From positions 64,001-128,000 of IMG/VR virus record IMGVR_UViG_3300045974_000760: a DNA stretch of 64,000 nucleotides. One strand, written 5' to 3'. Under the pieces are notes generated by a model. That model saw only the letters and a program-made list of their open reading frames with translations, had not been told where the DNA came from and ran no database searches. This stretch comes from a virus. Positions 986-48,897 of this stretch are shown here, piece after piece; positions within the stretch are counted from its first letter, which is position 1; each line of letters starts with the position of its first letter. A program made the position numbers and the translations under genes.

Positions 986-1552
986 ATGGCAAAGTCGTTC
1001 CCGTTGGACCGTACACGCGTGGCCGCCGTCAACGCGGTGGACAAGAAGGGCCGGCCACGTTCGGCCAAGCAAATCGCAAAGAAGCTGCGCGAGCTGTCGG
1101 TCAGTTTCGAAGAGGAAGGCCGCCCGATGCAGGTGTTGCAGCTGCGCACAGGTGGCGTCATTTTGCTGGGTGGCCCCAGCGTGCGGGCGATCACTTTGGC
1201 GGAAGTACTGGGACCATCGCTTTCTCCGGAGCCCTCGCCACCGCCCGGGCACGAGAAGGCCTCCCACGAGAAGATGTTGCCGGAAGTTGCGGCATGGATG
1301 GCGGGTGTTGTGACTGCCGCACAGATGCAACCGGGGCTTTCCAAGAAGGAAGGGCTACGTGCTGTGACGCGCGTAGCTGAGTCTCGCTCCCGCTCCTTCC
1401 CGCGGGAGAAGAAAGAGGCGTACATTGCAGAGGTGCGGCGCTCCCTCGCAGTACACGACGATGTCTGCAGCGAAGAGGACTGCTTCACCGGTCCAATCTA
1501 CAAGGCGCTGATTGCTGGGCTCGAAGTATCCCTGAAAGCGAGTCTTTCATGA
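986..1552 (+). CDS. Hypothetical protein
   Basis: AGGAG SD; ATGA overlap with next gene. Confidence 0.7.
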   Translation: MAKSFPLDRTRVAAVNAVDKKGRPRSAKQIAKKLRELSVSFEEEGRPMQVLQLRTGGVILLGGPSVRAITLAEVLGPSLSPEPSPPPGHEKASHEKMLPEVAAWMAGVVTAAQMQPGLSKKEGLRAVTRVAESRSRSFPREKKEAYIAEVRRSLAVHDDVCSEEDCFTGPIYKALIAGLEVSLKASLS

Positions 1553-1971
1553 AGGTCGTGCATATCGCGCCGGAGAAGCACCGTGACCTAGCATTTGGCG
1601 TGGTCGCGCACGCACTGTCATTCATCGTACCCCTCAACATCCGCGTCATCATCTTCGAGCTCGCTTCGGTGAGCTTGAAGGCGGAGGGCGCATCGGATGC
1701 TGAGGTGCAGCGTCTTGGCGAGGAGCTCGCGGACTTCCTCCTTCCTGAACGCGAGGATGGCAAGTACGAAGCCATCAAGGACAACCCGAGGGTTGCCCCG
1801 CTGCTGGCACAGCTACTCGAAGAGCGGTTCCCTGGTTTTCTCCCAACCCCGAAGGCAAGGAGCAAGAAGCGTGAGCCCAAACCCAAACTCAAGTCACCAA
1901 CCAAGGGTAGATTATTACCCAAACGTCAGGCACGTTGTGGAGGGCATCGACAAGCTGCCCGGAGAGACTGA
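1549..1971 (+). CDS. Hypothetical protein
   Basis: ATGA coupling; tail overlaps next gene. Confidence 0.6.
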   Translation: MKVVHIAPEKHRDLAFGVVAHALSFIVPLNIRVIIFELASVSLKAEGASDAEVQRLGEELADFLLPEREDGKYEAIKDNPRVAPLLAQLLEERFPGFLPTPKARSKKREPKPKLKSPTKGRLLPKRQARCGGHRQAARRD

Positions 1972-2116
1972 GCACGTGGTGATGTTCACTGCCGATGGCA
2001 GAATGATTGTGGTGTGGCGCGAGGGCAAGGAGAGGAAGAGCTGCTTCTCCGGTCTGGTTCTTCTGTCGCTGAAGCGTGAGGGGATTGCGCTTCAGCACAT
2101 TGGCCCGGAGGCGTAG
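1871..2116 (+). CDS. Hypothetical protein
   Basis: GTG start after AAGGAG; ends TAG. Confidence 0.55.
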   Translation: MSPNPNSSHQPRVDYYPNVRHVVEGIDKLPGETEHVVMFTADGRMIVVWREGKERKSCFSGLVLLSLKREGIALQHIGPEA

Positions 2117-2661
2117 TGCGCATCCCGCGAACTGGGCGGGTGCGTGTGTTTGCAGTACAGGCGGACCGCACCCTCAAGCATTGGAGCGATACACGATACG
2201 GGGCAGCGGGAGGGGCGCTGTTCGTACTGCAGACCATCTGTTACGAGAAGGGCATCACGGTACCTCCGCTGCGCACCGAGGCGCGGGTACCTGCCATGAC
2301 GAAGCTACTGCACAAGGGTGATGTTGGCGCACGTGCCGTTGATTCGCTTTCGCCGTATCAGCGGGGGCTGGTTCGGCTTGTACATCCGGACCACGGACAG
2401 CGCTATATCCGGCGCGAGGACATCCCGCTTGCCTGTGCCATGCTGTACAAGCGGTTCACGACCTACTACGGTCTGCTTGAGCCCGCGCCGCTGCTACCGT
2501 GGATTGTGTCGCAGCTGTGGGAGATCTACCACGCAGAGCAGTTCGGGGCGGCAATCCAGTGGGGGTACAAGACGCCCATCTGGGAGGAGCTCCTCGAAGC
2601 AAAGACGCCCGTAACGTTGGCAAGTGGCGTATCGGCGTGGAGGACGGAGGATAGGCGGTGA
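2116..2661 (+). CDS. Hypothetical protein
   Basis: 181-aa ORF coupled to previous stop. Confidence 0.65.
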   Translation: MRIPRTGRVRVFAVQADRTLKHWSDTRYGAAGGALFVLQTICYEKGITVPPLRTEARVPAMTKLLHKGDVGARAVDSLSPYQRGLVRLVHPDHGQRYIRREDIPLACAMLYKRFTTYYGLLEPAPLLPWIVSQLWEIYHAEQFGAAIQWGYKTPIWEELLEAKTPVTLASGVSAWRTEDRR

Positions 2662-2713
2662 AGCACGGCAAGCTCGACATGTACGGCGTCGAGCTGCCAT
2701 GCTTTTTAGCCTC

Positions 2714-5700
2714 ATGTCCTTCACCGCCGATGAAGTAGATGCCGCCGTTCAGAAGCTCGTCCAAGTCTCACTTCAGGTGAAGATGGATGCGACTGGCGCT
2801 CGACGTACGAGCGACACGTACGACGAGCTGATGTCCACAGCCGCGGGCCTCTTTCTCCTCTTCCCATTCGCCCCGCTCTACATCTTGTACCTCGCAGATG
2901 TGCGGCTGCGTACCCTCATCAAGACGCAGGTCGAGCAGGTCACCAAGCTACAGACCGCGCTCATCGCAGCAGCTCGCGCCGTCACACCCATCGAGGACAT
3001 CAGCGCGCTGAGTGAGGCGCGTGTTGCGCTCTCCGAGCTCGAAGGAGCTGCGGGCTCCCGCACCTCGACCTTCACCGACACTTCGACGCTGCCGGCGTAC
3101 CAACGGTTTCAGACACAAGCAGCTCGCTTTCTCGCGGGCCCGGCTCAGGTGGTGAAGTACGGCAACGACATCGTACAGACACCCCAAGAAGCACGCGCCT
3201 CCATCCCCGCGCTCGTGCTCGCCATCAAGACCACGCAGCTCGAGCTGCAGCGCAAGGCCACGCTACTCGCGGCCGGATACGCCGACTACGAGAGCTTGAA
3301 GCTCCCCTCCCGCCTCACGCGCTCCATGCTGCAGAAGGCGCGGACCACACTACAAGACCACGAGACTCGTCTCGCCTCACAGACACCACAAGAGCGGTTG
3401 TCGACGATGAGGAACGTGACGCTCGATGTGCTCGCCACCAAGGCAGCGGTAGCTACCACCGCTGCCTTCACCCCGTTGTCTGGCTTCCACAACATCGCAG
3501 GCACCGGCTCACCTCTCGGGGATGCAGCACACCCTGCAAATCCCGCCAGCCTCACAGCCAGTGTTGCGAGCCCCTACCCTATCGCCCAAGGCACGTCCTC
3601 CTCTCTCGAGGTGTGGGTAGATGGCGCGGTCTCTGCCAGCGAGACACTCGAGCTCAATCCCGCAACCACACCTGAGTTCATTGGCACAGTACCCGAGCCC
3701 TTCGAGATTGATGTCGCGAGCTCCCCCTTCACGTACAGCGTCACGCTCAGCGGTACGACGTACAGCTTCACGCATGACCTGACCGCGCTTGTGGGTTCAG
3801 GTTCGCGTCTCGCAGAGGAGGTGGCCAACGTCCTCAACCCGCTCATCGCGAGTTGCAACATCGCGTTCTCACCGGTGTTCAACGCGCTCAAGCTCGCAGG
3901 CATCACCACCCTCCTCACCGACGGGGGGATGGTAGGCGGGGATTGGACCCTCACCTTCGAATCCTTCGGCGCGAACTTCATCAATCAGGCGGTGGTGGTC
4001 GGGGACACCATCCTGCTCGAGGCCGCTGTAAGTGCAGGTCTTGGCGCGCTCGAGCACACAGCATGGACGGTGACATCGGTCTATCCGCTCGGTGTCAACC
4101 AGCACCGCATCATCGCCAAGCGCACACAGGCCTCCTTCGTCCTGCCCGCCTCCCCGCACAACATCAACTTCCGCATCGGCGACAAGAAGCAGCTGCAGCT
4201 CGGCCCGCTTGATGTACCGCTCGCCATCACGCAGGACATGGTCATCGCCATCGCGCCGGGCGCTACCAATACCGGCGCTACTACCGTGGGGATGCTGCCT
4301 GGCCTCACGCTCTCAGTAGGGCGCGTGGCTGCCAGTGACCTGATGGCCGACATCAACAGCAAGGCCAAGAAGTGCAAGGCCTCTGTCTCCTTCGTTCCCA
4401 CGCGCACCACGTCCTTCTATGGGTACTCGGACCCCAACGACCCAACCACGCTCGCGCTCTCTTACCTCAACCGCACCTTCCGAACCCTCACCGCAGGTGC
4501 GAGCACGTTCACGCTCAGTGTGCCTGATGCCGACCTTCTCGGGCTTGATGTTACGGTCGGCGATTACGTCACGCTGCGCTCGGGCGTGGACCTCGGTGAT
4601 AGCTTCCCTGTGAGTAGCGTGGATGCGCACACCATCACGTGCACTGGTACGCCAACGAGCGGGCTTGTGCAGTTCGACGTCAGCCCTGACCTCACCGCAC
4701 TCGCGGCCATCAACGACGTGGTCTCGGTGACAGAGGGGCCCAACACACTCCAATACGTTGTGCGGGCACAAGGACTGCGCCGCACCGAGCTCGTTCTGCA
4801 GACCGCACTGCCCAGCTTCAAGGACCCAAGTACGGGCAGCGCCATCGAGTTCCGTGGCGTGCTCGGCAAGACCCTCATCACCCTTGCCTCCCTCGATAAG
4901 ACCACCAAGTCCGCCATCCAGCTGCGCGGGCCCGCCTCCACACTCTTCAATCCCACCTACCCCATGAGTAGCTACGTGTTCGGGGCAACACCCTGGGTCA
5001 AGCTCCCCATCCTTCCTCGCGCCCTCGAGGCAGGTGATGTGCTCGAGCAGTACGGCTCCGACTACCAGCTCCCTGACAGTACGCACACCATCATCGATGT
5101 CGACCGGGCCAACAAGGGCATCAAGCTCGCGACCCCGGTGGATACGCAAGTCGCGCTCTCCTTCGTCGACCAAGAGCCGCCCTTCGCCAAGGTGCGTATC
5201 GCCAAGCATGCCGACTTCCAGACGCTCTCCACCGCGCTCACTGCGTGGCTCGCGCGGGAGGAGAACCAGAGCAACTACTTCGCCAACCTCAACGCGCTGC
5301 TCAACCCCATCCTGCTCAACGTCAACCCCACCTACGAGCAGACAGGCACAGCCGCGAACTCCGTGGCCATCCTCGCGGCGGGCCTCACGCCTGCCTTCGC
5401 TACCTCACTCGATGCTGACCCCGCGGTCTCCGTCGACTACGCGCTCGCAGCCTACACCGCCGACCCAATCCGTGAGGTGGACGCGCTGCTGCGAGCTCTA
5501 CGAGAGCGGGGAGCAGCACGCGCCTCAGACCTCCTCCTCGAGGGACAGTTCACCACGTTCTTCGGCATCCCCGCCGAGGAGGCTACGTACGCAGGCAAGA
5601 TGTCCTCTGACGTACGAGCGGTGACGCGTGAAGACCTCGTGGTTCGCCGCACTACCTCGAACGCCAAGGCATCTCAGCGCCTCATGGCTTCTGTGCCTGA

Positions 5701-6846: not shown

Positions 6847-7466
6847 GTGATGACCCGAACTACAACGAGGCTGCGGTACTGCGCGAGAGCATTCAAGGCC
6901 GCTTCGAGGCATTGAAGGCAGCGGTGAAGGCGGGGCTTGTGCTCACTCTCACCAACAAGGAGGGGCACATGGCAACGGGCGGCGGGATGTTCGTCGAGAC
7001 CCTGCCCGACATCGTGTCGAGAGAGGGCATGGCCCTCATGGGGTACCGCTTCGTCGACACGGCGGATGGTGACACCATCATGGAGCCGTCGAATCGCGCT
7101 GCTCGTGGCGCGCTCAAGCTCCTTCAGACTGAGGTCCCTACGCCCGCTACATGCAGCGCGGCTGAGGAGATTCGTAAGAAGGGCAACATCGTAGGTGCGG
7201 GCGGCTGGGACATGCTGAGGGGCGCCGAGCTTCCCGTCACGGATGTCACCCCGGAGCCGGCGCCGGAGCTAGGTCAGCGTGATCACACGTTGCGCATGGA
7301 TGAAGACGACCTCCGCGAGCTCTTGCACGAGCTCAGGCATCTGCGCGCCCAACGCACCGAGCTGCAGAAGCACAACACGGCGTACCACGACCAAGTCGTG
7401 GAGCTGAAGAATCGCATCAGGGAGCTTGAGTCGCGTGTCGGCGTGGATACCGAGACGGGAGCGTAA
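6843..7466 (+). CDS. Hypothetical protein with C-terminal coiled coil
   Basis: ATGA coupling; LRELLHELRHLRAQRTELQK. Confidence 0.65.
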   Translation: MSDDPNYNEAAVLRESIQGRFEALKAAVKAGLVLTLTNKEGHMATGGGMFVETLPDIVSREGMALMGYRFVDTADGDTIMEPSNRAARGALKLLQTEVPTPATCSAAEEIRKKGNIVGAGGWDMLRGAELPVTDVTPEPAPELGQRDHTLRMDEDDLRELLHELRHLRAQRTELQKHNTAYHDQVVELKNRIRELESRVGVDTETGA

Positions 7467-7944
7467 ACACGTCCCCTCGAAGGCCACTCTCCTTTTGCGG
7501 GAGTGGTACGAGCAGAAGTACAACGTGAAGGTGGACTGGGCGGCGCGCGAGCCTGTGTTCGGTATCGTTGCTGCCGCTGCGCGTCTTGGTGTGAGCATGC
7601 CCGCGTTGTACAACTGGCTGCACGGGGCGGTCCCCTACATCGACATGCGTATCCTGCTCGAGCAGGAGATGGGCATCCCCCTCACTGCATGGCCATCGAC
7701 GCGCGGGTTCGAGCGACGGGACTTGCTCAAGGATGTGTCGGGGACGCGCGTGGACCATGTTCTCGTGCTCTGCCGTAGTCCGAGACGGGCACAAGAGAAG
7801 CAGGCGTTCTTCGACGCGCTCTGCGACTGCGGTAACTTCTTCCGCGTAGGTAGTGCGGTGGTGCGGTACGAGCGGCGACTGCCCTTCGTGTGTACGCGCT
7901 GCCACAAGTACCGCACCAAGCAGTACGACAAGCTGTCCGCGTAG
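7426..7944 (+). CDS. XRE-like HTH protein with a Zn-binding CDCG...CxxC module
   Basis: AAARLGVSMPALYNWLHG helix-turn-helix; DVSGTRV...LCDCGN...CTRC. Confidence 0.6.
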   Translation: MSRVSAWIPRRERKHVPSKATLLLREWYEQKYNVKVDWAAREPVFGIVAAAARLGVSMPALYNWLHGAVPYIDMRILLEQEMGIPLTAWPSTRGFERRDLLKDVSGTRVDHVLVLCRSPRRAQEKQAFFDALCDCGNFFRVGSAVVRYERRLPFVCTRCHKYRTKQYDKLSA

Positions 7945-7952
7945 TTTCAATC

Positions 7953-7987
7953 GAAGGCCCGGCACTCAATCCGGGCCTTCTTCATTT
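7953..7987 (+). terminator. Intrinsic terminator-like hairpin
   Basis: gaaggcccgg...ccgggccttc followed by ttcattt. Confidence 0.5.
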
Positions 7988-7999
7988 CAGGAGATACAC

Positions 8000-8533
8000 A
8001 TGTTCAAGCCTTATCCCCTCACCATCGTGCTTCGCGGTCTCCCCGGTTCTGGTAAGTCCACCCTCGCAAAGAAGTTGAAAGAGATGCTGCGCGGGATGGG
8101 GTTGACCGTTGTCATCGTGAGCGCGGACGACCACTTCACCGCCCCGGATGGGCAGTACACGTACGTGCCTAGTGAGATTGGCAACGCGCACCAATCCTGC
8201 TGGACCAGGTTCTACGGCTTCGTATCGAGCGATTACTTCCCCGACGTCATCATCGTGGATAACACCAACGTCCACGAGGGGGAGATTGCTCCCTACGTTC
8301 TCCCCTCCGAGTGCAATGGGTTCAGGGTCGTCATCGTTTCGGTGGACGCGGAAGGCGCGTCTGCTGAAGAGCTGGCAAAGCGCACGTTGCACGGCGTGCC
8401 GCAGGCGGTGATAGCGCGAATGGCAACGGAAGGTGCGTGGGCAACGCTTCCGCCGTACTGGAAGACGTTGAAGGCGACCGTCAACACGGACCCGGGCGAG
8501 CTCTTCAAGGCCGCGCAGGAGCTGGTGTCCTGA
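8000..8533 (+). CDS. P-loop kinase (AAA_33 / N4BP2-like polynucleotide kinase)
   Basis: LRGLPGSGKST Walker A, VSADDHF, IIVDNTN, HGVP motifs. Confidence 0.85.
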   Translation: MFKPYPLTIVLRGLPGSGKSTLAKKLKEMLRGMGLTVVIVSADDHFTAPDGQYTYVPSEIGNAHQSCWTRFYGFVSSDYFPDVIIVDNTNVHEGEIAPYVLPSECNGFRVVIVSVDAEGASAEELAKRTLHGVPQAVIARMATEGAWATLPPYWKTLKATVNTDPGELFKAAQELVS

Positions 8534-8712
8534 TGGACCCTACCGAAACGCTCAACATCATGCTCGACAGGGCCAAGGTCTTGCTCGAGATGTACGACCA
8601 GGAGCAGGACATGCCCGATGAGGCACACGAGCTCGCAGAGGCTGTACAACACCTCGATGAGTGGTTGTCGAAAGGCGGTTTCCTACCAAGCCAATGGACA
8701 CCAAAGACCTGA
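8533..8712 (+). CDS. Small hypothetical protein
   Basis: TGATG overlap; LDEWLSKGGFLPSQW. Confidence 0.6.
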   Translation: MDPTETLNIMLDRAKVLLEMYDQEQDMPDEAHELAEAVQHLDEWLSKGGFLPSQWTPKT

Positions 8713-9026
8713 AGCCCCTCTCCCGCAAAGAGAGGGAAGTACTGAAGGTGGCCAGGGCACTCCATCTGCGACTGGGTGCCCCGCCCACTTTCAGCCAGCT
8801 GCGGACTGAGCTAGGCAAGGACGGGACGAACCACGTCTACGCGAGGGTCTACAGCATACGGGGCAAGGGCCACGAAATCCCCGTACTACCGCCCTTCGCT
8901 CTGTCACAAGACACCAGGCTACGTGAGTGCAGGGCGCTTGTGCGGCAATGGCGGGAGGACCCAACCATCGAGCCTGTGGATGTGCTCACGCTGATTGCCG
9001 AGCTACTCGAGCCGGGGAAGCAATGA
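8694..9026 (+). CDS. LexA N-terminal-like winged-helix protein
   Basis: LSRKEREVL...GAPPTFSQLRTELG. Confidence 0.5.
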   Translation: MDTKDLKPLSRKEREVLKVARALHLRLGAPPTFSQLRTELGKDGTNHVYARVYSIRGKGHEIPVLPPFALSQDTRLRECRALVRQWREDPTIEPVDVLTLIAELLEPGKQ

Positions 9027-9170
9027 ACGGGGGCCCGCAAGTCATTGCCGTACTGCGACGGGCCAACACAATCTGCCTTGCCAAGCGCGCACAACGTGTC
9101 TTGGCGAGGCAGGTAGCACCTGCGCTATTCGCTATCCTCCTCATCGCAGCTGGTGCAAGGAACAAGGAAG

Positions 9171-10300
9171 ATGAAGCCCAGCTCCCTGTTTTACGTGACG
9201 ACGTTCTGCAACTTCGCGCACAGGTTGAAGGACGGCAAGCCGATAGAACACGAGTGCCACATCCTGCCCAAGGACGCGCTCAAGGCAGAGATGAACGACG
9301 ACATCGATGAGGCGATGAACATCATCGACAACAACCGCCCTCTGCCCATCCACCCCGGCGTACGAAACCCAAACACAAGGAAGAACAAGAGTCATGGCTA
9401 GGCACGACCGGTATGAAGTCATCGGCAAGGACCTGTTCGAGCAGGGCGGCTATGACTGGATGGAGCACTTCACGCACAACATCGAACAGGCCGTAGAAGA
9501 GTATGCCTCTGCGGTGTTTGCCGAGGCAGATGCTGGTGACGAGTGGGAGTACACCATCTTGGCCAAAGGCAAGGACGGTGTTGTGCGCACGTTCAAGGTC
9601 AAAGCCCGTACGGAGTTCGACATCGTAGAGGAGGACGAAGACGAATGAAGACCTACAACAAGCTGACAGTCAGTGTGTCGATGGGCGACGAAGCGCTGGA
9701 CACGCCCGAGAAGGCACAGCTCTTCCTCGTCGATAGGCTCGGCTCCGTTGTACTTCCTGAAGAGAGCGGGTCGATTATCTGCCGGGACGTGAACGGCAAT
9801 ACACAGACCATCGAGATCGACTACGACGTTGATGAGGAAGAAGAAGAGGACGATGGGATGAATGAGTACAGGGTCACCGTCGTAGAGACGCGTAAGGTGA
9901 CTTGCGAGTACATCGTGCGCGCCGCTGACGACCTCGCCGCTCAGGACAAGGCAAAGAAAGGGGAGTGTGAAGAGTCAGATGACCTCTCCATCGATGAGGT
10001 GATCGATAGGGAGGTAGAGAGCGTCGAGGAGAACACTCCAGCGTCATGACCGCAGTAGAGATGCCGCCTGACATGCTCGAGGCCATACGAGATGCCGACT
10101 TCGACATGCTCGAGGCGTACTACTTGTACTGCAGCTTCTACCACGGCGGGCAGTGGACGGATGAGTACAAGTGGCTCTCGCACCTCACCTCAAGCGGGTT
10201 CAAAATCTCACCTCTTCGGACGATTGAGAATGCGTCTGAGGAGGTGAAGGCGCTGTACAACATGCTGTGTTGGAGGTACCAGCCCGATGACGCAGGCTGA
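9171..10300 (+). other. Run of small acidic hypothetical CDSs (9171-9401, 9394-9648, 9645-10049, 10046-10300)
   Basis: Translationally coupled ORFs. Confidence 0.6.
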
Positions 10301-27020: not shown

Positions 27021-27091
27021 GGGAGGTTGGGGCGGTTCCCCTAGCGGGCCTTATAAGCCGTGATCCACGGGTTCAACTCCCGTACCTCCTA
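27021..27091 (+). tRNA. tRNA-Ile(UAU), atypical
   Basis: Acceptor gggaggt/acctcct, loop ctTATaa, T arm acggg-ttcaact-cccgt; bulge in anticodon stem. Confidence 0.65.
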
Positions 27092-27121
27092 CAACAACCA
27101 CAACACAGAAAGGAGCAGCCC

Positions 27122-27565
27122 ATGGCTGTTCGACGTATCCGTGTACCTGCGCGCGAGCTCTCACCCGAGCTGCTCGATGCGGTTCGCGCTATTGCAGCAA
27201 CCAATGATGTACCTGCAGAGGACGTTGAGGTTGACATCGTCAGTCCAGCGGATGCGCCACTACGCGACCGCGTACTAGCTCTGCTGGGAACGCCGCGTGA
27301 GGGCCCGGTGTTTGAGCAGCAGTACCAAGGCATGTTCATCGAGGCTGATAGAGTGCCTGAGCACCCTGAGCTAACGCCACAGCAACAGGCGATACTGAGG
27401 CGGCAGCGAGAAGCGATGTTCGGGAGGAGATACGGGCGTAGCGGCAGAGACTTCAGTGTTTCGTCCCCGCCGCTCACAGAGGAAGAAGGGCGCGCCCTGA
27501 GCAATACACTCGTGGACTCCTTGCGTACACCGCCAGTGCTGCGCAGACCGCATCTTCATGTCTGA
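27122..27565 (+). CDS. Hypothetical protein
   Basis: AAGGAG SD. Confidence 0.6.
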   Translation: MAVRRIRVPARELSPELLDAVRAIAATNDVPAEDVEVDIVSPADAPLRDRVLALLGTPREGPVFEQQYQGMFIEADRVPEHPELTPQQQAILRRQREAMFGRRYGRSGRDFSVSSPPLTEEEGRALSNTLVDSLRTPPVLRRPHLHV

Positions 27566-28001
27566 GCAAGACTGGGCAGACATCCAGCAGTGGAGCGGTG
27601 AGTCGCCGGATATGGCAGATGCCGTGGCCATGGCCGTAGCAAACACCGTCAAGCCGCGGGTGAAGCGCCCGAAGTACCTCGGTGAACTCATGAAGAAGGG
27701 CGGGCTCGATATCGACGCCATCATCAATAGCCGGGTCGGTGACTACTACTCCCTGGACAAGCCCCGTGACCCAGGCTTCGCCAACTACCTCAAGGACACG
27801 TACAGGTGGAGTAAACACGAAGCTCGCCGCCAATGGCGCGCCCTACTCGATCGCGATATCGACCCCGCGGTAATACTCAACACAAGGAGGGCAACGTGGC
27901 GAAAGATGACGCAGAACAAGCAAACGAAGGTCGCGACCTCGGAGCAGAACCTAGTAGAACCGTTATCCAGACACACTCTGTGCAGCACGTCTTCGCTGTA
28001 G
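27558..28001 (+). CDS. LG(R/E)L...DIDxII motif protein
   Basis: RPKYLGELMKKGGLDIDAIINSR. Confidence 0.65.
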   Translation: MSEQDWADIQQWSGESPDMADAVAMAVANTVKPRVKRPKYLGELMKKGGLDIDAIINSRVGDYYSLDKPRDPGFANYLKDTYRWSKHEARRQWRALLDRDIDPAVILNTRRATWRKMTQNKQTKVATSEQNLVEPLSRHTLCSTSSL

Positions 28002-28024
28002 GGGAGGAGAGGGCAGTCGGCGCG

Positions 28025-28642
28025 ATGGTGGATGGGCGCTATCACGAATACAACCACGGCGAGACCGTACCCGGACCGAATGTCATCGAGGTGGTCGCGC
28101 AGCTCGAGACTCCGCTGGAGTACATTCGTATGCAGCTGCAGATCCCCGATGAAGTAGTTGTCGAGGCTGCCGCCGCGGGGGCGTTGCGCACTCTCACTGA
28201 CGGGGTGGAGGCGATGTACCTGCTCGACCGGCGAATCATGCGGATGCCACTGCTTCCATTCGGCCCGCTTCATCAGTCGAGGGTGCCGCTGCCCATGCCT
28301 CCGCTCCCAACAAGCAGCGCGGTCTTCCCGCCCTACCGCAACAGCCTGCCCGTACCCCGCCCAGCATGTCTCGGGGAGTTGATGAAGAAGGACGGGAAGA
28401 ACATCGACGCGATAGTAGAAGCGCGGGCGCCCGTACGGTACCCGCGGCACAGGAACCTCAATCAGCTCAACCCAGTGCATCGTGGTGTCCGCGAACAGTT
28501 CAAGGAGTACCTCATTACGAGAGGCATTACCGCCAAGAACTCCAGGCAAGCCTGGGCTACGTCGTCGGAGGAAGGGCAGAGCCCAAGGTTCGTGCTGGAG
28601 TACAGCTTCCAGTACTTCATGCATCGACTGAGGGCGACGTAG
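28025..28642 (+). CDS. LG(R/E)L...DIDxII motif protein
   Basis: GGAGGAG upstream; RPACLGELMKKDGKNIDAIVEAR. Confidence 0.65.
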   Translation: MVDGRYHEYNHGETVPGPNVIEVVAQLETPLEYIRMQLQIPDEVVVEAAAAGALRTLTDGVEAMYLLDRRIMRMPLLPFGPLHQSRVPLPMPPLPTSSAVFPPYRNSLPVPRPACLGELMKKDGKNIDAIVEARAPVRYPRHRNLNQLNPVHRGVREQFKEYLITRGITAKNSRQAWATSSEEGQSPRFVLEYSFQYFMHRLRAT

Positions 28643-28820
28643 GACCGCAGGAGCGTTGTACTTCCCGCGGTTTTCTTAGCTACAACACCGCCAATACAAA
28701 AGGTACTTGCGCTTCTGAAAACGCGCTGTATTACTTCCCTCGTCCCGAAGTACAACCTAACCGGTGACGAGGGACCCCCTCTTAGCAGTCAGTAACGCTC
28801 TGTGAAAATGTAAGCCGGTC

Positions 28821-28903
28821 GGAGTTCGATAGGACATGGCTGTCCAGGCGGTCTGTAACACCGCGGCCCTACGGGGCGAGTGGTTCGATTCCACCGGGCT
28901 TCA
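28821..28903 (+). tRNA. tRNA-Tyr(GUA)
   Basis: Anticodon arm gcggt-ctGTAac-accgc, long variable arm, T loop ttcgatt. Confidence 0.8.
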
Positions 28904-29027
28904 CTGGAAGAGCTGGCCGCCCCTCGGGGAGGAGGGGCTCTTCCTACTTTTTGTTCGGGTCGTTGGTTGTGGGTTACCCCATCGAAAAAGTCCCCCACGT
29001 CCATTCATTTATCCGAACTTGTAGTAC

Positions 29028-29113
29028 GCCTCGTGTAGCTCAGTTGGTAGAGCGCGGGATGACATCCGAAAGGGGTCTGCCCGAGGTCGATGGTTCAAGC
29101 CCATCCACAGGCA
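29028..29113 (+). ncRNA. tRNA-like RNA with anticodon loop replaced by a GAAA-capped helix
   Basis: Canonical D arm tagctcagttggtagagc, T arm gatgg-ttcaagc-ccatc, acceptor gcct(c)gtg/cacaggc. Confidence 0.65.
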
Positions 29114-29116
29114 CAC

Positions 29117-29186
29117 GGGCTGAATAAGCTCGGGCGCAAGCCCCTCTACTCTTGGTGACACAAGAGATAGACTGAGTTCCGGCTCA
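29117..29186 (+). ncRNA. Small three-way-junction RNA
   Basis: gggctg/cggctc and agctc/gagtt stems; hairpins gggc-gcaa-gccc and ctcttg...caagag. Confidence 0.45.
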
Positions 29187-29206
29187 GAGGTAAACCGGAG
29201 AAGTAC

Positions 29207-29283
29207 GGGTAGGGAAGAGAAATGGTTCTCACTGGCCGCGTAGTTCGTCCACGCCCCGTCGGTTCGATTCCGACCTCTACCCC
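29207..29283 (+). tRNA. Degenerate tRNA-like element with 8-bp acceptor (possibly Arg UCG)
   Basis: gggtaggg/ctctaccc, D stem gagaa/ttctc, T arm gtcgg-ttcgatt-ccgac; anticodon arm poorly formed. Confidence 0.45.
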
Positions 29284-29284
29284 C

Positions 29285-43459: not shown

Positions 43460-44255
43460 ATGACTCGACCTGAAGAGCAGCTGACCACACGTCGCGAGGT
43501 TATCCGAGACATCGACCGTCACGAGGACACCTGGCGCGGTGTGGTTTCGCAGGTTCAGGGCGAGAAGAAGCGGACGGCCAAGGACATAGCGAACAAGAGT
43601 AAGTGGGGGCCGCGCCTTGTGGTGCCCGGCGCAGTCGCAGGGCTAACGGCGGGTGTTGTGGCTCCTAGTCTTCTGTCCACGGAGTTGATGCGGCGCGGGT
43701 ACAAGGGACTGGGTACCGCGGCAGCGATTATGACGCCCGCCACTGCTTTTGGCGGCGCGCTCTACGGTGGTATTGGCGGCTACCGCCTCGGCGACAAGAT
43801 TGATGACACACCTCAGCGCGACGCGCTGCGGGAGCATTTGAGCAATCTCTCCTCCTACGGGCGACATCGACAAGAAGACCCGCGACCAGCTCGTGCGGGA
43901 TTACAACGAGGACAAGCTCAAGGCACTGCTCGTCTCTTCGGCGGGCGGGGAAGGCCTCGACCTCAAGGGCACCCGCCTCGTGCAGATGCTCGACCCACAC
44001 TGGAACAACGAGAAGCTCCGTCAGGTGGAAGGCCGGGCCATTCGCTACAAGAGCCACGACCACCTGCCCGAGGAGGAGCGCAACGTCACCATCAACAACT
44101 ACCTGGCGACGCGCCCTCGTAAGGGCATCCTCGAGAGCTTGCACATCTCCGACCCGGGCCTTGGTGCGGACCAGTACCTGACGCGACGGTCTGGCGAGAA
44201 GGACAAGCTGATCGACCAGTTCAAGGGGCTGCTCCCGAACTCGAAGAAGAGCTAG
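43460..44255 (+). pseudogene. Glycine-zipper N-terminus joined out of frame (+1) to an SNF2-type helicase C-terminal fragment
   Basis: TGDIDKKTRDQLVRDYN...SSAGGEGLDLKG...DPHWN...QVEGRAIRYKSH in a frame open only from 43842. Confidence 0.65.
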
Positions 44256-44393
44256 GACATTGTACGCCCCTCCCGCTTTTCGATAGGGGCGCTACGTCTC
44301 TTTCTCTCGCTGAAATATTGAGCGCGAAGCCGGAATAACAACCGTGCGCGCCCACTACTTTCAGTCGGGCCAAACGAAAGAGACCAGCCAAAA

Positions 44394-45332
44394 ATGTCCA
44401 GCAAGAAGCCCAACAAAGCAGCACCCATCGCAGCCGCCAAACAAGCCGAAGTCATTCAAGCCGCAAGCGAGCGGGTGAAGGGGCTCAGCATCGACACGGT
44501 GCTCGAGACCGCAGCAGCCCTACGAAGCAGCTTGAACAAGAAGGTGGATGAGATTGCCCAGGTTACGCAGAGCAAGCTCGGGGATGTTGCCGCTCTCGAC
44601 ATCGTCATCGCGGAGCGCAAGTCGACCATCTCCCGCTTGGCGGGCATCGACGCAGAGCTCGAGGGGTACGAGGCGAAGAAGGCGGACCTCGAGGCAGAGC
44701 TCACCGACCTCGAGGTGAAGAAGGTCGACCTCGAGAGGCAGCTCGCTGACGAGGACACGGCACGTGCGGCCCGCATCAAGCGGGAGGAGGAGCTGATTGC
44801 CCTCTCCCGCAAGCAGGAGAAGGAGGCATACGACTACAACATTGCGAAGGCGCGACGGGACCTCGAGGATGCGTTCCGAGCCGACCTCGAGAAACGCAAG
44901 CGTGAGGAGACGCTTCGCCGGGAGGACTGGGAGCGCCTCCTCAACCGCGAGAAGAACGACCACGAGGCGTGGCTTGCCTCGGGCAACATCGAGAAGATTC
45001 GCAAGGAGATGGAGGACGGCTTCACGCTCCAGCTCACGACGTCTCTCAACGCCCTCCGCTCTGACCTGACGGACAAGGCGAAGGATGCGGCGCGTCTTGC
45101 AGCCTCCCAGCTCGACAGCGTCAAGAGCCAGCTCGATAGCTCGAACGCGCAGCTCAAGGCGGCCAACCTCGAGCTCGAGCGTCTGCGTCTCGAGAACGCG
45201 GCGGCAGGGGCCCGTATCGAGAGCATCGCCGTCAAGGCGGTGGAGGGGGCGGCCTCTCGCGAGGGCTTCGCCAACCGAGTCGTCGAGACGGCGTTGCAGC
45301 AGCCGACGGTTCAGCCGCGCACCACGCGCTGA
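44394..45332 (+). CDS. Long coiled-coil protein
   Basis: E/K/R/A/L heptads over about 250 aa. Confidence 0.75.
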   Translation: MSSKKPNKAAPIAAAKQAEVIQAASERVKGLSIDTVLETAAALRSSLNKKVDEIAQVTQSKLGDVAALDIVIAERKSTISRLAGIDAELEGYEAKKADLEAELTDLEVKKVDLERQLADEDTARAARIKREEELIALSRKQEKEAYDYNIAKARRDLEDAFRADLEKRKREETLRREDWERLLNREKNDHEAWLASGNIEKIRKEMEDGFTLQLTTSLNALRSDLTDKAKDAARLAASQLDSVKSQLDSSNAQLKAANLELERLRLENAAAGARIESIAVKAVEGAASREGFANRVVETALQQPTVQPRTTR

Positions 45333-45358
45333 GATATTCGCGTCGGCGAGAAAATGTC

Positions 45359-45383
45359 AAAGCCCTCTTCCGAGGGCTTTTTC
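45359..45383 (+). terminator. Intrinsic terminator between convergent units
   Basis: aaagccctc-ttcc-gagggcttt-ttc. Confidence 0.7.
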
Positions 45384-45393
45384 ATTAGCTATG

Positions 45394-45464
45394 CGGTTCT
45401 GGCTGGAGTCGAACCAGCTTCCGGGAAGTTAGAAATCCTTGTTCGGCCGTTGAACTACAGAACC
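45394..45464 (-). tRNA. Putative amber-suppressor tRNA (CUA); alternative is a degenerate Arg(UCU)
   Basis: GGTTCTG TA GTTC AACGGCC GAAC A AGGAT TT-CTA-AC TTCCC GGAA GCTGG TTCGACT CCAGC CAGAACC G. Confidence 0.65.
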
Positions 45465-45465
45465 T

Positions 45466-45501
45466 TGGTGCTCCCGAGTACGCCGTCGCGAAGGTGGGAG
45501 C
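45466..45501 (-). ncRNA. Acceptor-stem-like minihelix ending in ACCA
   Basis: GCTCCC-20 nt-GGGAGC-ACCA, 1 nt before the tRNA 5' end. Confidence 0.35.
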
Positions 45502-45519
45502 GGGGCCGTCTCTACAACA

Positions 45520-45843
45520 TCAACGAGCGAGTGCAAGAGGAAGTTTGCGCACCAGCTTACTGCTCTTGTTGCCTGGCTCGAGCGCGAAGGCGGTCAAGCT
45601 GTTGTTGAGGTCGGGCTCGAAGAAGAGGGCCGTACGGAGGCCTCGTAGACTCGCCTCTTCAGCCAGCCGGCGGAGCTACGTTTCGTCAGGCACGGATAGA
45701 ACTGCGAGCGTGTTACTAGCGGCATACCAGCTCTCCTCCAGATCGCGATGGTGAGCTTGAAACACACGGCACGCATGACACGCTTGAGCGACTTGGAGAC
45801 CGGGAGGCAGATCTGCTCTGACGATGACATAAAGTTTCTCCAT
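45520..45843 (-). CDS. Pth2-like peptidyl-tRNA hydrolase with an in-frame TAG at codon 56
   Basis: MEKLYVIVRADLPPGLQVAQACHA...VLSVPDET*LRRLAEE...FFEPDLNNSLTAFALEP...KLPLALAR; GAGGAG SD. Confidence 0.8.
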
Positions 45844-46120
45844 CGGCGTACTCCTCATTCTCAAGGATGGGCCGTTCAACTCGGATGTAACTCTCAAGCG
45901 CAGTCACATCAGCAAGAAGATCGCAGCCTTCCTTGTGCTTACAATCTGCCTTCTTGGTGGTGCGCGTGTCGTATCTCGCTCGACAAGAATCGCAGAGATA
46001 GTCGTACCCGACGACGCAGCAACGCATCGTCACGGGCGACTCCTTCCACATCTCCTCCTTGGCGCGGTCGACCATCCGCTCGATCCGATCGAGCAGCTCT
46101 AGGTCCATCGACGACATCAC
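45716..46120 (-). CDS. Small Cys/His-rich hypothetical protein
   Basis: Coupled to upstream gene; tail overlaps the Pth2-like gene; ends TAG. Confidence 0.5.
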   Translation of the reverse strand: MMSSMDLELLDRIERMVDRAKEEMWKESPVTMRCCVVGYDYLCDSCRARYDTRTTKKADCKHKEGCDLLADVTALESYIRVERPILENEEYADGETLCHRQSRSASRSPSRSSVSCVPCVSSSPSRSGGELVCR

Positions 46121-46476
46121 TCCGCTGCCTCGTCCTTCTTGTACGGCACCTTCACGCGAGGCGGAGGAGCGGGGATCGCCCCTTCCTTGTTCGCGAGCCA
46201 GGTTGTCAGCGCCTCTTTCGATACGTCTGCTTCCCCGATCATCGCGTCGCGGAAAACGATGACGAGTAGAGAGATATTCGGGAAGTTATGCTCGAACCCG
46301 TTCTCCTTCTGCACCTTGTGGGAACGCTCGATACGTCGGTACGGGAAACCACGTATGAAGCCCCAAGCAAGATTGCCGTACCGGCCTTCTTCCTTGCAGT
46401 GCTTACGGAACGACTTGTGGAACGCCTTGATCTTCTCTTGCTCTTCAGCTGGCAACTGCTTGTAGTTCTCGAACAT
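46117..46476 (-). CDS. Hypothetical protein (LAWGFIRGFPYRRIE motif)
   Basis: GAGGA SD; first gene of the minus-strand operon. Confidence 0.65.
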   Translation of the reverse strand: MFENYKQLPAEEQEKIKAFHKSFRKHCKEEGRYGNLAWGFIRGFPYRRIERSHKVQKENGFEHNFPNISLLVIVFRDAMIGEADVSKEALTTWLANKEGAIPAPPPRVKVPYKKDEAAE

Positions 46477-46645
46477 GGTTGTAGTCCTCTCTATTGAAGG
46501 TTCTTGTTGTGGAGTCAACAACAAGCAACTGGGAGGACCACGAGGCAGCTAGAAGAAGTGCATGACTCACCGAACATAACACGCGTACTTCGCCGCGCAA
46601 TATCGCGAGGCAATGTCCGGGATAAGGAAGCTGAAAGGAGGTCTT

Positions 46646-47755
46646 ATGGATGAGGATTTGGATGAACGAGACGCCATGTACCGCGACACGTTGTACATCC
46701 ACACGTGGAGCTTTATTGCCGCGCAGATGGAAGGGCGGCCGGTCGTAGACCAGTGTGTGGTCTACGCGTCGGAGAGTGAGCCTCATGTCCACATTCTGGA
46801 CAAGGGCGCGTTCGTGAACCCGCGTAACGTGTTGATTTTCCAGCCCGATGAGGAGGTGGCATTCGAGGCGTACGAGATTGGTGAGCCGCTCGGGATGAAG
46901 GTGATTCGCGGGGAGTTCGAGGAGATCTACCTTGAGTGCCGGAGAAGGGCAGGGCTGATGTTCTTCGAGACGGGCTCTCCGGCACCAGAGCGGGTTGGGC
47001 AGCTGCGCCACATCATCACGCAGGTTCTTGATACACGCGCCCTACTCGCAGTCTTCATCCCCAAGCCCACCGAGGAAGAGCTCGATCATGCGGTGGCGTA
47101 CATGAAGCGCGTCCACACCTATGACTACGAGGGCAAGGCGCTCGAGAAGGCTTTCACGCGCGGTGGGGTAGAAGAAGTCAATTACCTGCTGAACGCGGTG
47201 GGGATGAACGGACTGCCCGAGGACGTCTTCACCGCACTCAGCGAGAAGAGCCGTACGTTGTCCATCAACGGACTCGTCGACATGTACCACCCAGCAGTCC
47301 ACGCCAGCATCGAGGCTAAGCGCCGCGACTCACCCTGGGTGCTCTACGCACGAGCTCTACGTGAGACGGTCTGGGACGAGATCGGAATGGCGTACCGCAT
47401 CGGGGTCCAGGGAATCATCTACTCGGAGGTCATCTCCGCAGGTGTACTGCTTTTCGACGTGACGCGCTTCGGCAGTTCGAAGCAAGCACAGAAGCAACGC
47501 AAGACAGCCGCGCAGCTTGTAATGCGCCTTTTCAACATCGACACCAGCATCGATCAGAAAGAAGAGACCAAGAACCATGGCACGATCTCCAATGCAGTCC
47601 GCCGACGTTTCGCAGACCTCCACGAGCTCCAATGCAACGCCCTCCGTCGCGAAGCTGGTCTTGGTGTGGAGCTGCATGCCCCTGAAGATGTTGCGGGGCT
47701 CGGGGACGATGAAGTTCATCGAGGAGGAAGTGGGCCTCGAAGCCCACATCGTTGA
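46646..47755 (+). CDS. Hypothetical protein
   Basis: AAGGAGG SD after GGGATAAG. Confidence 0.7.
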   Translation: MDEDLDERDAMYRDTLYIHTWSFIAAQMEGRPVVDQCVVYASESEPHVHILDKGAFVNPRNVLIFQPDEEVAFEAYEIGEPLGMKVIRGEFEEIYLECRRRAGLMFFETGSPAPERVGQLRHIITQVLDTRALLAVFIPKPTEEELDHAVAYMKRVHTYDYEGKALEKAFTRGGVEEVNYLLNAVGMNGLPEDVFTALSEKSRTLSINGLVDMYHPAVHASIEAKRRDSPWVLYARALRETVWDEIGMAYRIGVQGIIYSEVISAGVLLFDVTRFGSSKQAQKQRKTAAQLVMRLFNIDTSIDQKEETKNHGTISNAVRRRFADLHELQCNALRREAGLGVELHAPEDVAGLGDDEVHRGGSGPRSPHR

Positions 47756-48347
47756 CCCCAAGGACAAGGGGAAAATCGACCCCGGGCAGTACGCCGGGGT
47801 CATCGCAATGCGGCCCATGATGGGCGCGCCCGCCAAGGGAAAAGTAGAGCGCGTCTCCTCAGCCGGAGGATTCGACGTCCTGTGGCTCGACCACCAAACC
47901 TCCCACCTCACGGAGCATATGAGGAACGTCATCCGGCGTATGGCGGGCGAGACACCTGTGGAGGTCGAGGCCCCCAAGCTCGCGCTCGCCCCCCCGGCGG
48001 AGGTCCACATCCCTGTGCCGATGAACTACCTCCCACAAGTGGAGGTGTCCGAGAGCGAGCAGAGCGTTATGCTTGCCCTCTACGAGAAGGAGAACAAGGA
48101 GCTCGGCGAAGAGCTGCGCGCGGTACGCGAAGAGGCAGAAGCCGCTCATACGCGCGGTAATTACCTCGCCGCAGAGAACGATCGCCTGACCCGCTCTCTT
48201 GCTGAGGCGAACGCCACAATCGACAGTATGCAGGAGCTGAAGAAGGCAGCGAAGGCATTGGCTCCCTTCCGCACGTTGCTCGAGCAGGGGGTCATGACGA
48301 AACAGCAAGTGCAAGAGCACATCTTGCGCTTGATCGACTTCGGCTAG
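47577..48347 (+). CDS. Hypothetical protein with C-terminal coiled coil (start uncertain)
   Basis: ORF track. Confidence 0.6.
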   Translation: MARSPMQSADVSQTSTSSNATPSVAKLVLVWSCMPLKMLRGSGTMKFIEEEVGLEAHIVDPKDKGKIDPGQYAGVIAMRPMMGAPAKGKVERVSSAGGFDVLWLDHQTSHLTEHMRNVIRRMAGETPVEVEAPKLALAPPAEVHIPVPMNYLPQVEVSESEQSVMLALYEKENKELGEELRAVREEAEAAHTRGNYLAAENDRLTRSLAEANATIDSMQELKKAAKALAPFRTLLEQGVMTKQQVQEHILRLIDFG

Positions 48348-48359
48348 AATGGGCGGGGT

Positions 48360-48897
48360 ATGGACCCACATAAAGTAGCCGCGATGCGAATCGTGGCCGT
48401 TCCTTGTACCCGGGAAGAGATGACCGCCAAGCTCACAAGTATCCGTAGCGACTTCCACCGCGACGGCTTCGTGGTGAAGCAGGCAGTGCAGCGGCCCGGA
48501 CGTATCCACGGGCATCGCTGCGAAGTACTCTCCGTCACGGGCATCAAGGAACTCGACAAGCGCCTACAACCGCTGCCACGCTCTGCGGATGGCAACGGAT
48601 AAAGAAGGCACCGTAGAACAACAGAACCTCGAGTTCCGCCGCGCTATCCAATCCGCGTACACCACGGTGCAAGCCGCCGAGGCGTCACGTGGATTGGGTA
48701 GTGTGACGTACGAGGAGCTGATGCAGCAGCAGGTGGACATGATTGAAGGTTCGGGGACAGATACGCGCCCCAGCATCCTTCAACGCATCGACCGGGTGGA
48801 GGCCGACATCCTTGCCGTGGTTGGGCAGGTGAAGGAGCTACCGGTCGAGTACGTCCTCCAGCCGAACGGGGAGCTGGACGCCAACACAGCACCTTGA
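48360..48897 (+). other. Small CDSs 48360-48602 and 48589-48897
   Basis: Overlapping ORFs. Confidence 0.45.

Follow-up and report, generated by a model that had tools for sequence, protein, structure and literature searches.

Phage suppressor transfer RNAs (tRNAs) are already known. Recoded phages (crAss-like, Lak and others) carry a CUA tRNA of their own in hosts with the standard genetic code, and Borges et al. proposed that such a suppressor lets in-frame stop codons persist; the code change module of that paper consists of a tRNA, a synthetase and a release factor, and the word hydrolase is absent from its main text (10.1101/2021.08.26.457843). Xanthomonas phage XacN1 uses the standard code and encodes both CUA tRNAs and a peptidyl-tRNA hydrolase; its authors read on past 18 amber stops and came upon no target (PMC5852040). 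Atu_ph07 carries a UCA suppressor and two hydrolases (PMC6102473). Here we analyzed a viral DNA of 64,000 nucleotides (the window; bases 64001–128000 of the 143,216-bp linear record IMGVR_UViG_3300045974_000760, 61% GC), which contains a tRNA gene with anticodon CUA and, 61 nt upstream on the same strand, a gene for a peptidyl-tRNA hydrolase 2 (PTH2)-like protein with a TAG at codon 56. We consider it probable (roughly 0.6) that the tRNA is a working amber suppressor and that this neighbor is its built-in client. The window shares with the recoded phages the phage-borne CUA tRNA and the standard-code host, and the idea that a suppressor lets stops persist fits it. In recoded phages, in-frame TAGs are numerous in the late and the lysis genes (10.1101/2021.08.26.457843), whereas the window phage has a single candidate, with 24 of its 169 genes ending in TAG. 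The account of XacN1 (PMC5852040), as far as it deals with these genes, does not link hydrolase and suppressor, whereas in the window the hydrolase-like gene is itself the candidate target. What is new is a conserved partner gene that is amber-gated, here in the middle of the gene.

The closest described relatives of the pair are in the cluster C mycobacteriophages (Myrnavirus ScoobyDoobyDoo and Phabba; Bixzunavirus Catera and ~200 others). Their PTH2-like protein is 46–50% identical to that of the window, and a tRNA(CUA) lies 150–290 nt downstream of the gene annotated as peptidyl tRNA hydrolase, on the same strand, as in the window. The best match, at 49.5% identity, was ScoobyDoobyDoo, in which the peptidyl tRNA hydrolase is gene 79 and is followed, 180 nt downstream, by gene 80, a tRNA-Pyl(cta). 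In Catera and Phabba the loop of the tRNA reads UUCUAA and position 31.39 is a C.C mismatch, where the window tRNA has the mismatch U.U; in ScoobyDoobyDoo and Phabba a hairpin and ACCAA precede the tRNA, much as they do here. The differences concern the place of the stop codon and the surroundings. In cluster C the TAG stands directly before the annotated GTG start (ATG/GTG-TAG-GTG) and annotators start the gene after it, whereas the TAG of the window is codon 56, which no later start can circumvent; at least 30 tRNAs surround the pair in cluster C, whereas in the window it is alone, on the opposite strand, in the late region. The GenBank records of cluster C hold no comment linking the tRNA and the TAG. 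Full-text literature searches, which covered mostly titles and abstract openings, returned no paper in which a phage suppressor tRNA is connected with a PTH2-like gene and an in-frame UAG.

A CUA tRNA in a phage with the standard code

The tRNA gene occupies 45394..45464 on the minus strand (71 nt). ARAGORN called it at 45393–45464 (-) with anticodon CUA, and Rfam model RF00005 aligned to 45464–45394 (-) over the full model (1–71) with 49.7 bits (E 1.2e-7; gathering score, 29). The anticodon lies at 45430..45432 (TAG on the plus strand; ARAGORN anticodon position 33), and in the Rfam alignment it sits in a 7-nt loop, U-U-CUA-A-C, with U33 before CUA and a purine at 37. The acceptor stem GGUUCUG/CAGAACC forms 7 Watson-Crick pairs, the D stem GUUC/GAAC 4 pairs and the T stem GCUGG/CCAGC 5 pairs. 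The anticodon stem AGGAU/UUCCC is weaker, with 3 Watson-Crick pairs between the mismatches A27.C43 and U31.U39. There is a variable loop of 4 nt, the discriminator base is G, and the gene does not encode CCA. A preliminary description of this DNA, made from its letters without database searches, had reported the perfect acceptor, D and T stems, the three-pair anticodon stem, the G discriminator and the missing CCA, all of which we read again from the sequence. The cloverleaf in the CUA register was the minimum-free-energy structure at -21.5 kcal/mol. The window tRNA is thereby confirmed as a real tRNA gene with anticodon CUA, of amber-suppressor type by sequence.

The preliminary description had treated the register as ambiguous between CUA and UCU, and had proposed a covariance-model check; the Rfam model gave CUA, not UCU, and ARAGORN agreed. 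The ambiguity is intrinsic and trivial, because any CUA behind the universal U33 spells UCU one base earlier. Stem pairing alone decides the register, and it gives CUA: the UCU register, with two G.U pairs, folded at -14.8 kcal/mol, 6.7 kcal/mol worse than the CUA register and worse even than the -19.1 kcal/mol reached without any anticodon stem. A tRNA-Arg(UCU) that reads AGA and was mis-called since U33 followed by CU spells UCU is very improbable in our view. It would find support in GenBank, where the tRNA after the hydrolase gene is annotated as tRNA-Arg in Catera (locus L034, 3105–3178) and as tRNA-Arg(tct) in Phabba (L042, 3465–3535), and in the other tRNAs of the record, which serve A-ending codons, rare in GC-rich genomes (AGA accounts for 41 of 42,620 codons). 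However, in Catera and Phabba ARAGORN likewise called CUA. The same cassette family (see below) has 29 distinct CUA tRNAs; 19 are paired at 31–39, and several have fully paired stems that allow CUA alone. The normal, perfect-stem tRNA-Arg(UCU) of Erwinia phage pEa_SNUABM_47 looks different, and the D-loop position of the Arg identity base in Escherichia coli, A20, is a C here.

Descent of the tRNA from Arg(UCU) by a slip of one nucleotide, as previously suggested, found no support. A nearest-isotype analysis against 100 non-CUA tRNAs of the related loci gave no consistent nearest isotype for the tRNA body, and the best non-CUA match was a Glu(UUC) tRNA at 65%, which is the background level. 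In BLAST searches with the tRNA, neither phages nor E. coli genomes yielded a match covering 80% of it, and the partial matches were at chance level (for example, over positions 1–33, a Bacteroides phage tRNA-Arg, E 2); a pattern scan of IMG/VR for the tRNA body gave none. ARAGORN labels the gene tRNA-Pyl, which we rejected. The pyrrolysine system consists of the PylS synthetase and pylBCD, with a tRNA that has a 3-nt variable loop and a 6-bp anticodon stem; the window tRNA has 4 nt and 3 pairs, respectively, the 93 + 83 proteins scanned against Pfam included neither a synthetase nor a Pyl family, and the label reflects only the CUA.

The weak anticodon stem had been read as the mark of a deliberately weak suppressor, a claim that we could support in part. 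The mismatch at 31.39 recurs in 10 of the 29 distinct CUA tRNAs of the family, including those of mycobacteriophages Catera and Phabba, and in a ~90% identical relative from another metagenome U31 has changed to C with the mismatch kept. The weak stem may be a trait rather than damage, and possibly a part of read-through tuning.

ARAGORN found eight tRNAs in the window, seven of them at 27021–29853 (+) and the CUA tRNA alone on the minus strand, ~15.5 kb from the others and in the structural/late region; its isolation, some 15 kb off the cluster and on the opposite strand, had been described correctly. Genes were called by a codon-usage score trained on the long open reading frames (ORFs) of the record itself. 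Under code 11 this gave 169 genes and a coding density of 0.892, compared with 0.867 when TAG was read as sense, 0.673 for TGA and 0.870 for TAA. Stop codons were TGA in 129 genes, TAG in 24 and TAA in 16. The eight genes that had been listed as ending in TAG (at 2116, 6439, 7944, 14843, 28001, 28642, 44255 and 48347) all do so, and hairpins follow those at 7944, 14843, 28642 and 44255, in line with the terminators noted earlier behind several of them. The central point of the preliminary description, a tRNA of amber-suppressor type in a phage whose genes still end at TAG, is supported.

Reassignment of TAG in the whole genome or in its late genes (of the code 15 type) appears scarcely credible, even though in gut phages recoding shows a strong link with suppressor tRNAs encoded by the phage (10.1101/2021.08.26.457843) and the tRNA lies in the structural/late region. 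The proposed comparison of densities went against it (0.892 versus 0.867), as do the 24 TAG-ended genes; long structural genes are open under code 11, and no release factor or aminoacyl-tRNA synthetase family was found among the 93 + 83 proteins scanned. A coding-like in-frame extension followed the stop in 3 of 24 genes ending in TAG, 5 of 16 in TAA and 15 of 129 in TGA, and two of the three TAG extensions are the next gene sharing the frame. A codon-score scan of all TAGs with open flanks gave 8 matches, all of them antisense shadows or adjoining genes. The only strong TAG-bridged ORF in uncalled gaps (47523–48602) was rejected as two genes, the second with its own GGGAGGGG ribosome-binding site, and no amber-gated leader of the RAPP/RGPP type was found in this genome. 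Within the extent of the record the code of the phage is the standard one, and we reject reassignment across the genome. An early stage of reassignment, as had been put forward, is not supported for the genome, which has its best density under code 11 and one credible in-frame TAG; that single TAG does fit the idea of a suppressor that lets stops persist. The search for further in-frame TAGs, release factors and synthetases, which had also been proposed, likewise yielded only the TAG of the neighboring PTH2-like gene. As a separate observation on codon usage, in-frame TTA is almost absent from the record (11 of 42,620 codons); six of these codons fall within the final 10% of a gene, and three are the very last codon.

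The PTH2-like gene and its in-frame TAG

The context that we regard as decisive, and that was absent from the preliminary description, is the PTH2-like neighbor with its in-frame TAG. The gene lies at 45526..45843 on the minus strand, with an ATG at 45843 behind GAGGAG and a TGA stop at 45528–45526, and comprises 105 codons through the internal TAG, which is codon 56 (45676..45678, minus strand). Without read-through its product would be a 55-residue fragment. Pfam family PF01981 matched the read-through product with 39.7 bits (E 6.3e-10) over residues 3–95, spanning the TAG; the N-terminal 55 residues alone scored 21.4 bits, under the 23-bit cut-off. AlphaFold2 modeled the read-through product as a single alpha/beta domain (predicted local distance difference test [pLDDT] score, 95.1; predicted template modeling [pTM] score, 0.87), and Foldseek matched the model at probability 1.00, with template modeling (TM) scores of 0.79–0.85, to 1q7s, 2zv3, 1wn2, 3erj and 1xty, its partners being Bit1, MJ0051, PH1539, AF2095 and the Sulfolobus solfataricus Pth2. 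The family match and the predicted fold are obtained only for the read-through product. In the model, the TAG codon is the third residue of a helix (54–66).

The NCBIfam Pth2 equivalog models matched weakly (25 against a cut-off of 126, and 21.9 against 82), and the gene is, judged by its predicted product, a divergent PF01981 member and not an equivalog. Compared with solved Pth2 chains, the family profile was closest to 2zv3 (E 3.1e-7). Canonical Pth2/Bit1 proteins (PF01981; 1q7s, 2zv3, 1xty) have the same fold and share the motifs Q-x-x-H-A and T-A-x-A with the phage protein at 16–25% identity. Where 2zv3 has its lysine-rich stretch, Gly-Lys-Gly-Lys, the phage profile has P-E/G-Y/L-Q, so the lysines are not retained, and the Asp region aligns ambiguously; the phage family has an invariant E-P-D motif of its own. 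Canonical Pth2 is archaeal and eukaryotic, whereas the phage clade is tied to tRNA(CUA).

No ATG, GTG or TTG occurs after the TAG until past the conserved FFEPDLNN motif, and the C-terminal half therefore cannot be made alone. This half keeps all family-invariant residues (E76, P77, D78, T84, P102, L103 and A104) and has a coding-like codon score of +15 bits over 49 codons. The column aligned with the TAG holds Q, E, A or other residues in relatives, with Q or E in the closest ones (locus L054, for example, has DETELRT where the window gene has DET-TAG-LRR); the TAG is thus one base from CAG or GAG, at a variable position. The 61-nt spacer between the stop of the PTH2-like gene and the tRNA (45465..45525, minus strand), for which we folded the 62 nt upstream of the tRNA, contains a hairpin at ~45501–45470 followed by CACCAA directly 5' of the tRNA. 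A similar hairpin with an ACCAA-like tail precedes the CUA tRNA in ScoobyDoobyDoo (L035), Phabba (L042) and the loci L023, L045 and L017. As an observation on the spacer itself, the (C)ACCAA after the hairpin resembles a tRNA 3' end, and T-arm-like fragments lie between the hydrolase gene and the tRNA in several relatives.

Contigs of a relative ~88–91% identical to the window were found in the activated-sludge run X2, spanning the terminator, the tRNA, the 3' part of the PTH2-like gene and the TAG region. The contig piece has 12 differences, six of which were displayed. Five of the six displayed ORF differences affect third codon positions, before as well as after the TAG; the TAG itself shows no displayed difference. 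A loss and a gain of 1 nt each, 3 nt apart, keep the frame downstream of the TAG, and a lone 1-nt loss falls in the non-coding spacer. Runs X2 to X13 gave small shares only, and X4 and X12 cover only parts beyond 46100, clear of both the tRNA and the TAG.

Conservation of the pair and of the TAG in relatives

To examine the prevalence of the pair, we collected loci with PTH2-like homologs. With a small alignment as query, IMG/VR yielded 17 loci, 12 of them with full-length homologs; in 7 of the 12, a tRNA(CUA) lies on the strand of the homolog and no further than ~1.3 kb away. Among GenBank phages the protein matched 233 records, 206 of which are cluster C mycobacteriophages with the gene annotated as peptidyl tRNA hydrolase, and a metagenome scan with a 6-sequence alignment added 44 loci. 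The partial loci L028–L030, L032 and L033, with 18–30 matched residues and belonging to another family that shares FFEPDLNDALTA, were left out of all counts, and L013–L016, which repeat L021, L027 and L031 or are a near-identical twin record, were not counted twice. The resulting 66 loci were grouped into 51 clusters at ~90% identity.

Of the 51 clusters, 27 have a tRNA(CUA) at the locus; among the 32 whose flanks both reach at least 1.5 kb, the count is 21. The loci contain 37 CUA tRNAs, every one on the strand of the PTH2-like gene, out of 137 tRNAs overall. For comparison, we took five whole phage records that were chosen for having no CUA near the gene, and CUA made up 4 of the 218 tRNAs in their arrays; even so, four of these five carry a CUA tRNA elsewhere, 3.3 kb, 8 kb or further away. 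With 61 nt between its members, the pair of the window falls within the definition of the cassette (one strand, within ~2 kb). The pairing of tRNA(CUA) and PTH2-like gene is not accidental, and it recurs in many large phages that are not related to one another. In two IMG/VR phages a transfer-messenger RNA gene follows the pair (L020, 4258–4661; L027, 4763–5153), bringing three elements of the translation-rescue type into one place.

Upstream of the PTH2-like domain, the nearest in-frame stop was TAG in 37 of 48 evaluable clusters, TGA in 8 and TAA in 3, in loci of 22–69% GC. Compared with 137 of 518 (26%) for other ORFs of at least 90 codons in the same loci, this is a marked excess of TAG (binomial p 3.6e-13). 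Under a strict definition of the leader (a start codon, 0–8 codons, then the stop), 31 of the 48 clusters have a TAG leader, for example MK-TAG, MTH-TAG or M-TAG, compared with 1 for TAA and 1 for TGA. No canonical start lies between TAG and domain in 22 of the 31, and the codon after the TAG begins with a purine in 29 of the 31. Termination-reinitiation, in which a mini-ORF ends at the TAG and translation restarts at the next codon, is possible in relatives with GTG or ATG at that place; the next codons AAT, GAA, AGT, GGC, CTG and ATA do not agree with it, and it is inapplicable to codon 56 of the window. The leader of the window gene has no TAG, unlike that of the cassette; the window gene keeps its gate at another place, in mid-gene, and is a variant of the cassette design.

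Several relatives deserve mention in their own right. In Erwinia phage pEa_SNUABM_47 and Serratia phage BF (L038 and L039, 2974–3291) the PTH2-like ORF (M-T-H-TAG-N-D-K...) is unannotated, presumably owing to the TAG, and the CUA tRNA of pEa_SNUABM_47 lies 3.3 kb downstream of the ORF (record positions 288959–289034). In Stenotrophomonas phage CM1 (L040, record positions ~70.4–71.2 kb) the PTH2-like domain is the C-terminal part of a ~270-codon ORF that starts M-K-TAG and shows N-terminal HD-like motifs by eye; this record also has a tRNA with the UUA (ochre-type) anticodon at 176611.

A number of points weigh against a functional pair in the window. The TAG is at codon 56 and not in the leader, and such an internal TAG occurs in only 1 of the 51 clusters; it could therefore have arisen by nonsense mutation in a gene undergoing decay. 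For the first 55 codons the codon score is -6.2 bits, and a second open frame overlaps this part. The tRNA has its two anticodon-stem mismatches, C at D-loop positions 20–21 and an A15/A48 pair, which could signal decay. The identity of the TAG in the X2 relative is deduced from the lack of a displayed difference, with six of the 12 differences undisplayed. The only full-length DNA match came from the run that is probably the source, in which an independently assembled contig was identical, making this confirmation of the TAG not fully independent. The sole RNA run covers only 46453–46600. The record is ~77% complete by CheckV, leaving room for other clients, and a suppressor would also extend the 24 TAG-terminated genes.

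Much of this would be expected of a decaying cassette, in which a chance TAG has made the PTH2-like gene a pseudogene, the tRNA is idle or eroding and the adjacency is inherited from functional ancestors. The TAG where no relative has one, the absence of the conserved leader TAG, the negative codon score and overlap of the N-terminal half, and the mismatches, non-standard D loop and 15–48 pair of the tRNA all agree with it. Broken copies may exist in the family: the homolog in L058/L059 (contigs of 26–28% GC) has an internal TAA at codon 42 of the match, which may represent such a copy or a decoding oddity. Nevertheless, the half of the gene after the TAG keeps its family-invariant residues and a coding-like codon score, the whole read-through product is modeled at pLDDT 95, the differences in X2 are mostly at third positions (5 of 6 displayed) with a paired loss and gain that preserves the frame, and the 31.39 mismatch is a recurrent trait (10 of 29). 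Moreover, the stop codon is the very one read by the adjacent tRNA. We therefore regard decay as unlikely and favor a working suppressor with the PTH2-like gene as its client.

A general-purpose suppressor, with its main targets in host genes, co-infecting phages, the missing ~23% of the genome or low-level C-terminal extensions, would make the TAG of the neighbor a tolerated side effect. The incompleteness of the record leaves space for such targets, and three of the 24 TAG-ended genes have coding-like extensions, albeit two by the shared frame of the next gene. Five clusters have a tRNA(CUA) beside a PTH2-like gene that lacks a clear TAG, and the CUA suppressors of XacN1 were reported with no target found (PMC5852040). 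Conversely, the codon-score scans gave no other credible in-frame TAG, extensions after TAG were no commoner than after TAA or TGA, no RAPP-type leader was present, and a TAG in the partner gene of 31 of 48 clusters goes far past a side effect. Such a role of the tRNA is, in our judgment, quite improbable, compared with that of a suppressor for its own partner gene.

Proposed working of the pair and other features of the record

If the PTH2-like gene is the client of the suppressor, leftward transcription would cover two small ORFs, the PTH2-like gene and the tRNA, ending at the hairpin at 45380–45359. Host enzymes would excise the tRNA and add CCA, and a host synthetase would charge it; charging with Gln or Glu would restore the residue of close relatives. 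At the UAG the tRNA would compete with release factor 1. Where the tRNA wins, the full 105-residue protein of PTH2 fold would be made, and where it loses, the 55-residue fragment. We infer from the sequence that the tRNA is charged and suppresses, and that the TAG at codon 56 is read through. Since the PTH2-like protein would be completed only if the UAG is read, its amount would follow suppressor activity. The protein may act as a hydrolase on peptidyl- or aminoacyl-tRNA made by or from the suppressor: it might clear peptidyl-tRNAs that arise at stop read-through, or alternatively it might strip the suppressor itself, a negative feedback that would keep read-through low while 24 of 169 genes stop at TAG.

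A more far-reaching version, which we consider doubtful, is a self-limiting governor of amber suppression. In this proposal the enzyme would specifically strip the suppressor tRNA in its aminoacyl or peptidyl form, its level would track suppression at a low set point, and the loop would deliver a controlled trickle of UAG read-through to other beneficiaries, with the weak stem and the gate at codon 56 as two tunings of the loop. The release factor 2 gene, prfB, is likewise a translation-factor gene with an early in-frame stop (UGA), whose decoding its synthesis depends on. The prfB mechanism is a +1 frameshift with direct sensing of the gene's own product, whereas read-through in the window would need a separate, co-encoded tRNA, and any feedback through the hydrolase is a proposal. 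The bar minigenes of phage lambda offer a further analogy, and synthetic feed-forward circuits built on suppressor tRNAs reportedly exist (PMC7969014).

A conserved partner gene that is completed only by reading of UAG offers a concrete and testable client for the suppressor tRNAs of standard-code phages, for which no purpose had been reported. A natural translational circuit is suggested as well, one that would tie the output of a translation-quality-control-type enzyme to stop-codon read-through. Gene callers miss or shorten the gene, which is unannotated in pEa_SNUABM_47 and BF and started after the TAG in ~200 mycobacteriophage records, and the partner tRNA is sometimes mislabeled as tRNA-Arg. 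Cluster C mycobacteriophages can be cultured on a laboratory host, so the circuit could be tested at the bench, and the variant of the window, with its gate in mid-gene, is not explicable by a later start codon.

The remaining features of the minus-strand unit are as follows. Its first gene (46117..46476, minus strand) encodes 119 amino acids with no Pfam or PHROG match, has a codon score of 46 bits, and ends in a TGA that overlaps the ATG of the next ORF. The latter is a Cys-rich open frame of 133 amino acids (45716..46117, minus strand), identified from the ORF list and codon score, with no family match; it covers the first 128 nt of the PTH2-like gene in a different frame. In the related contig of run X2 the region 45730–46114, including the Cys-rich ORF, is replaced by 111 other letters. 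The hairpin terminator (45359..45380) was found by a terminator scan as a minus-strand site with 9 pairs, 14 nt 3' of the tRNA, and it also ends the convergent plus-strand gene at 44394–45332. No sigma-70-like promoter was found in 44200–48700. A search of GenBank phage DNA with 44000–47000 gave no match, no relatives were found for the adjoining 312- and 369-amino-acid proteins, and the 407-amino-acid virion protein matched only cyanophages, at <35% identity.

Some minor observations concern other parts of the record. A tRNA-like gene at 29029–29114 (+) was left untyped by ARAGORN ("???", with the two-base anticodon "ga") and scored 41.1 bits with Rfam; with introns allowed, it was called Val(gac) with a 10-nt insert in the anticodon loop. 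At 43460–44255 (+) a fragment of the Pfam domain Helicase_C (profile positions 58–109) begins at residue 1 of the ORF 43893–44255, and a sensible upstream reading lies in another frame (ORF 43460–44122), an apparent one-base frame break or split gene just after a 951-amino-acid protein. Outside the window, record bases 1211–4306 and 7141–9930 (L008) encode a large terminase with a LAGLIDADG intein and a second, 929-amino-acid protein with Hint and LAGLIDADG domains.

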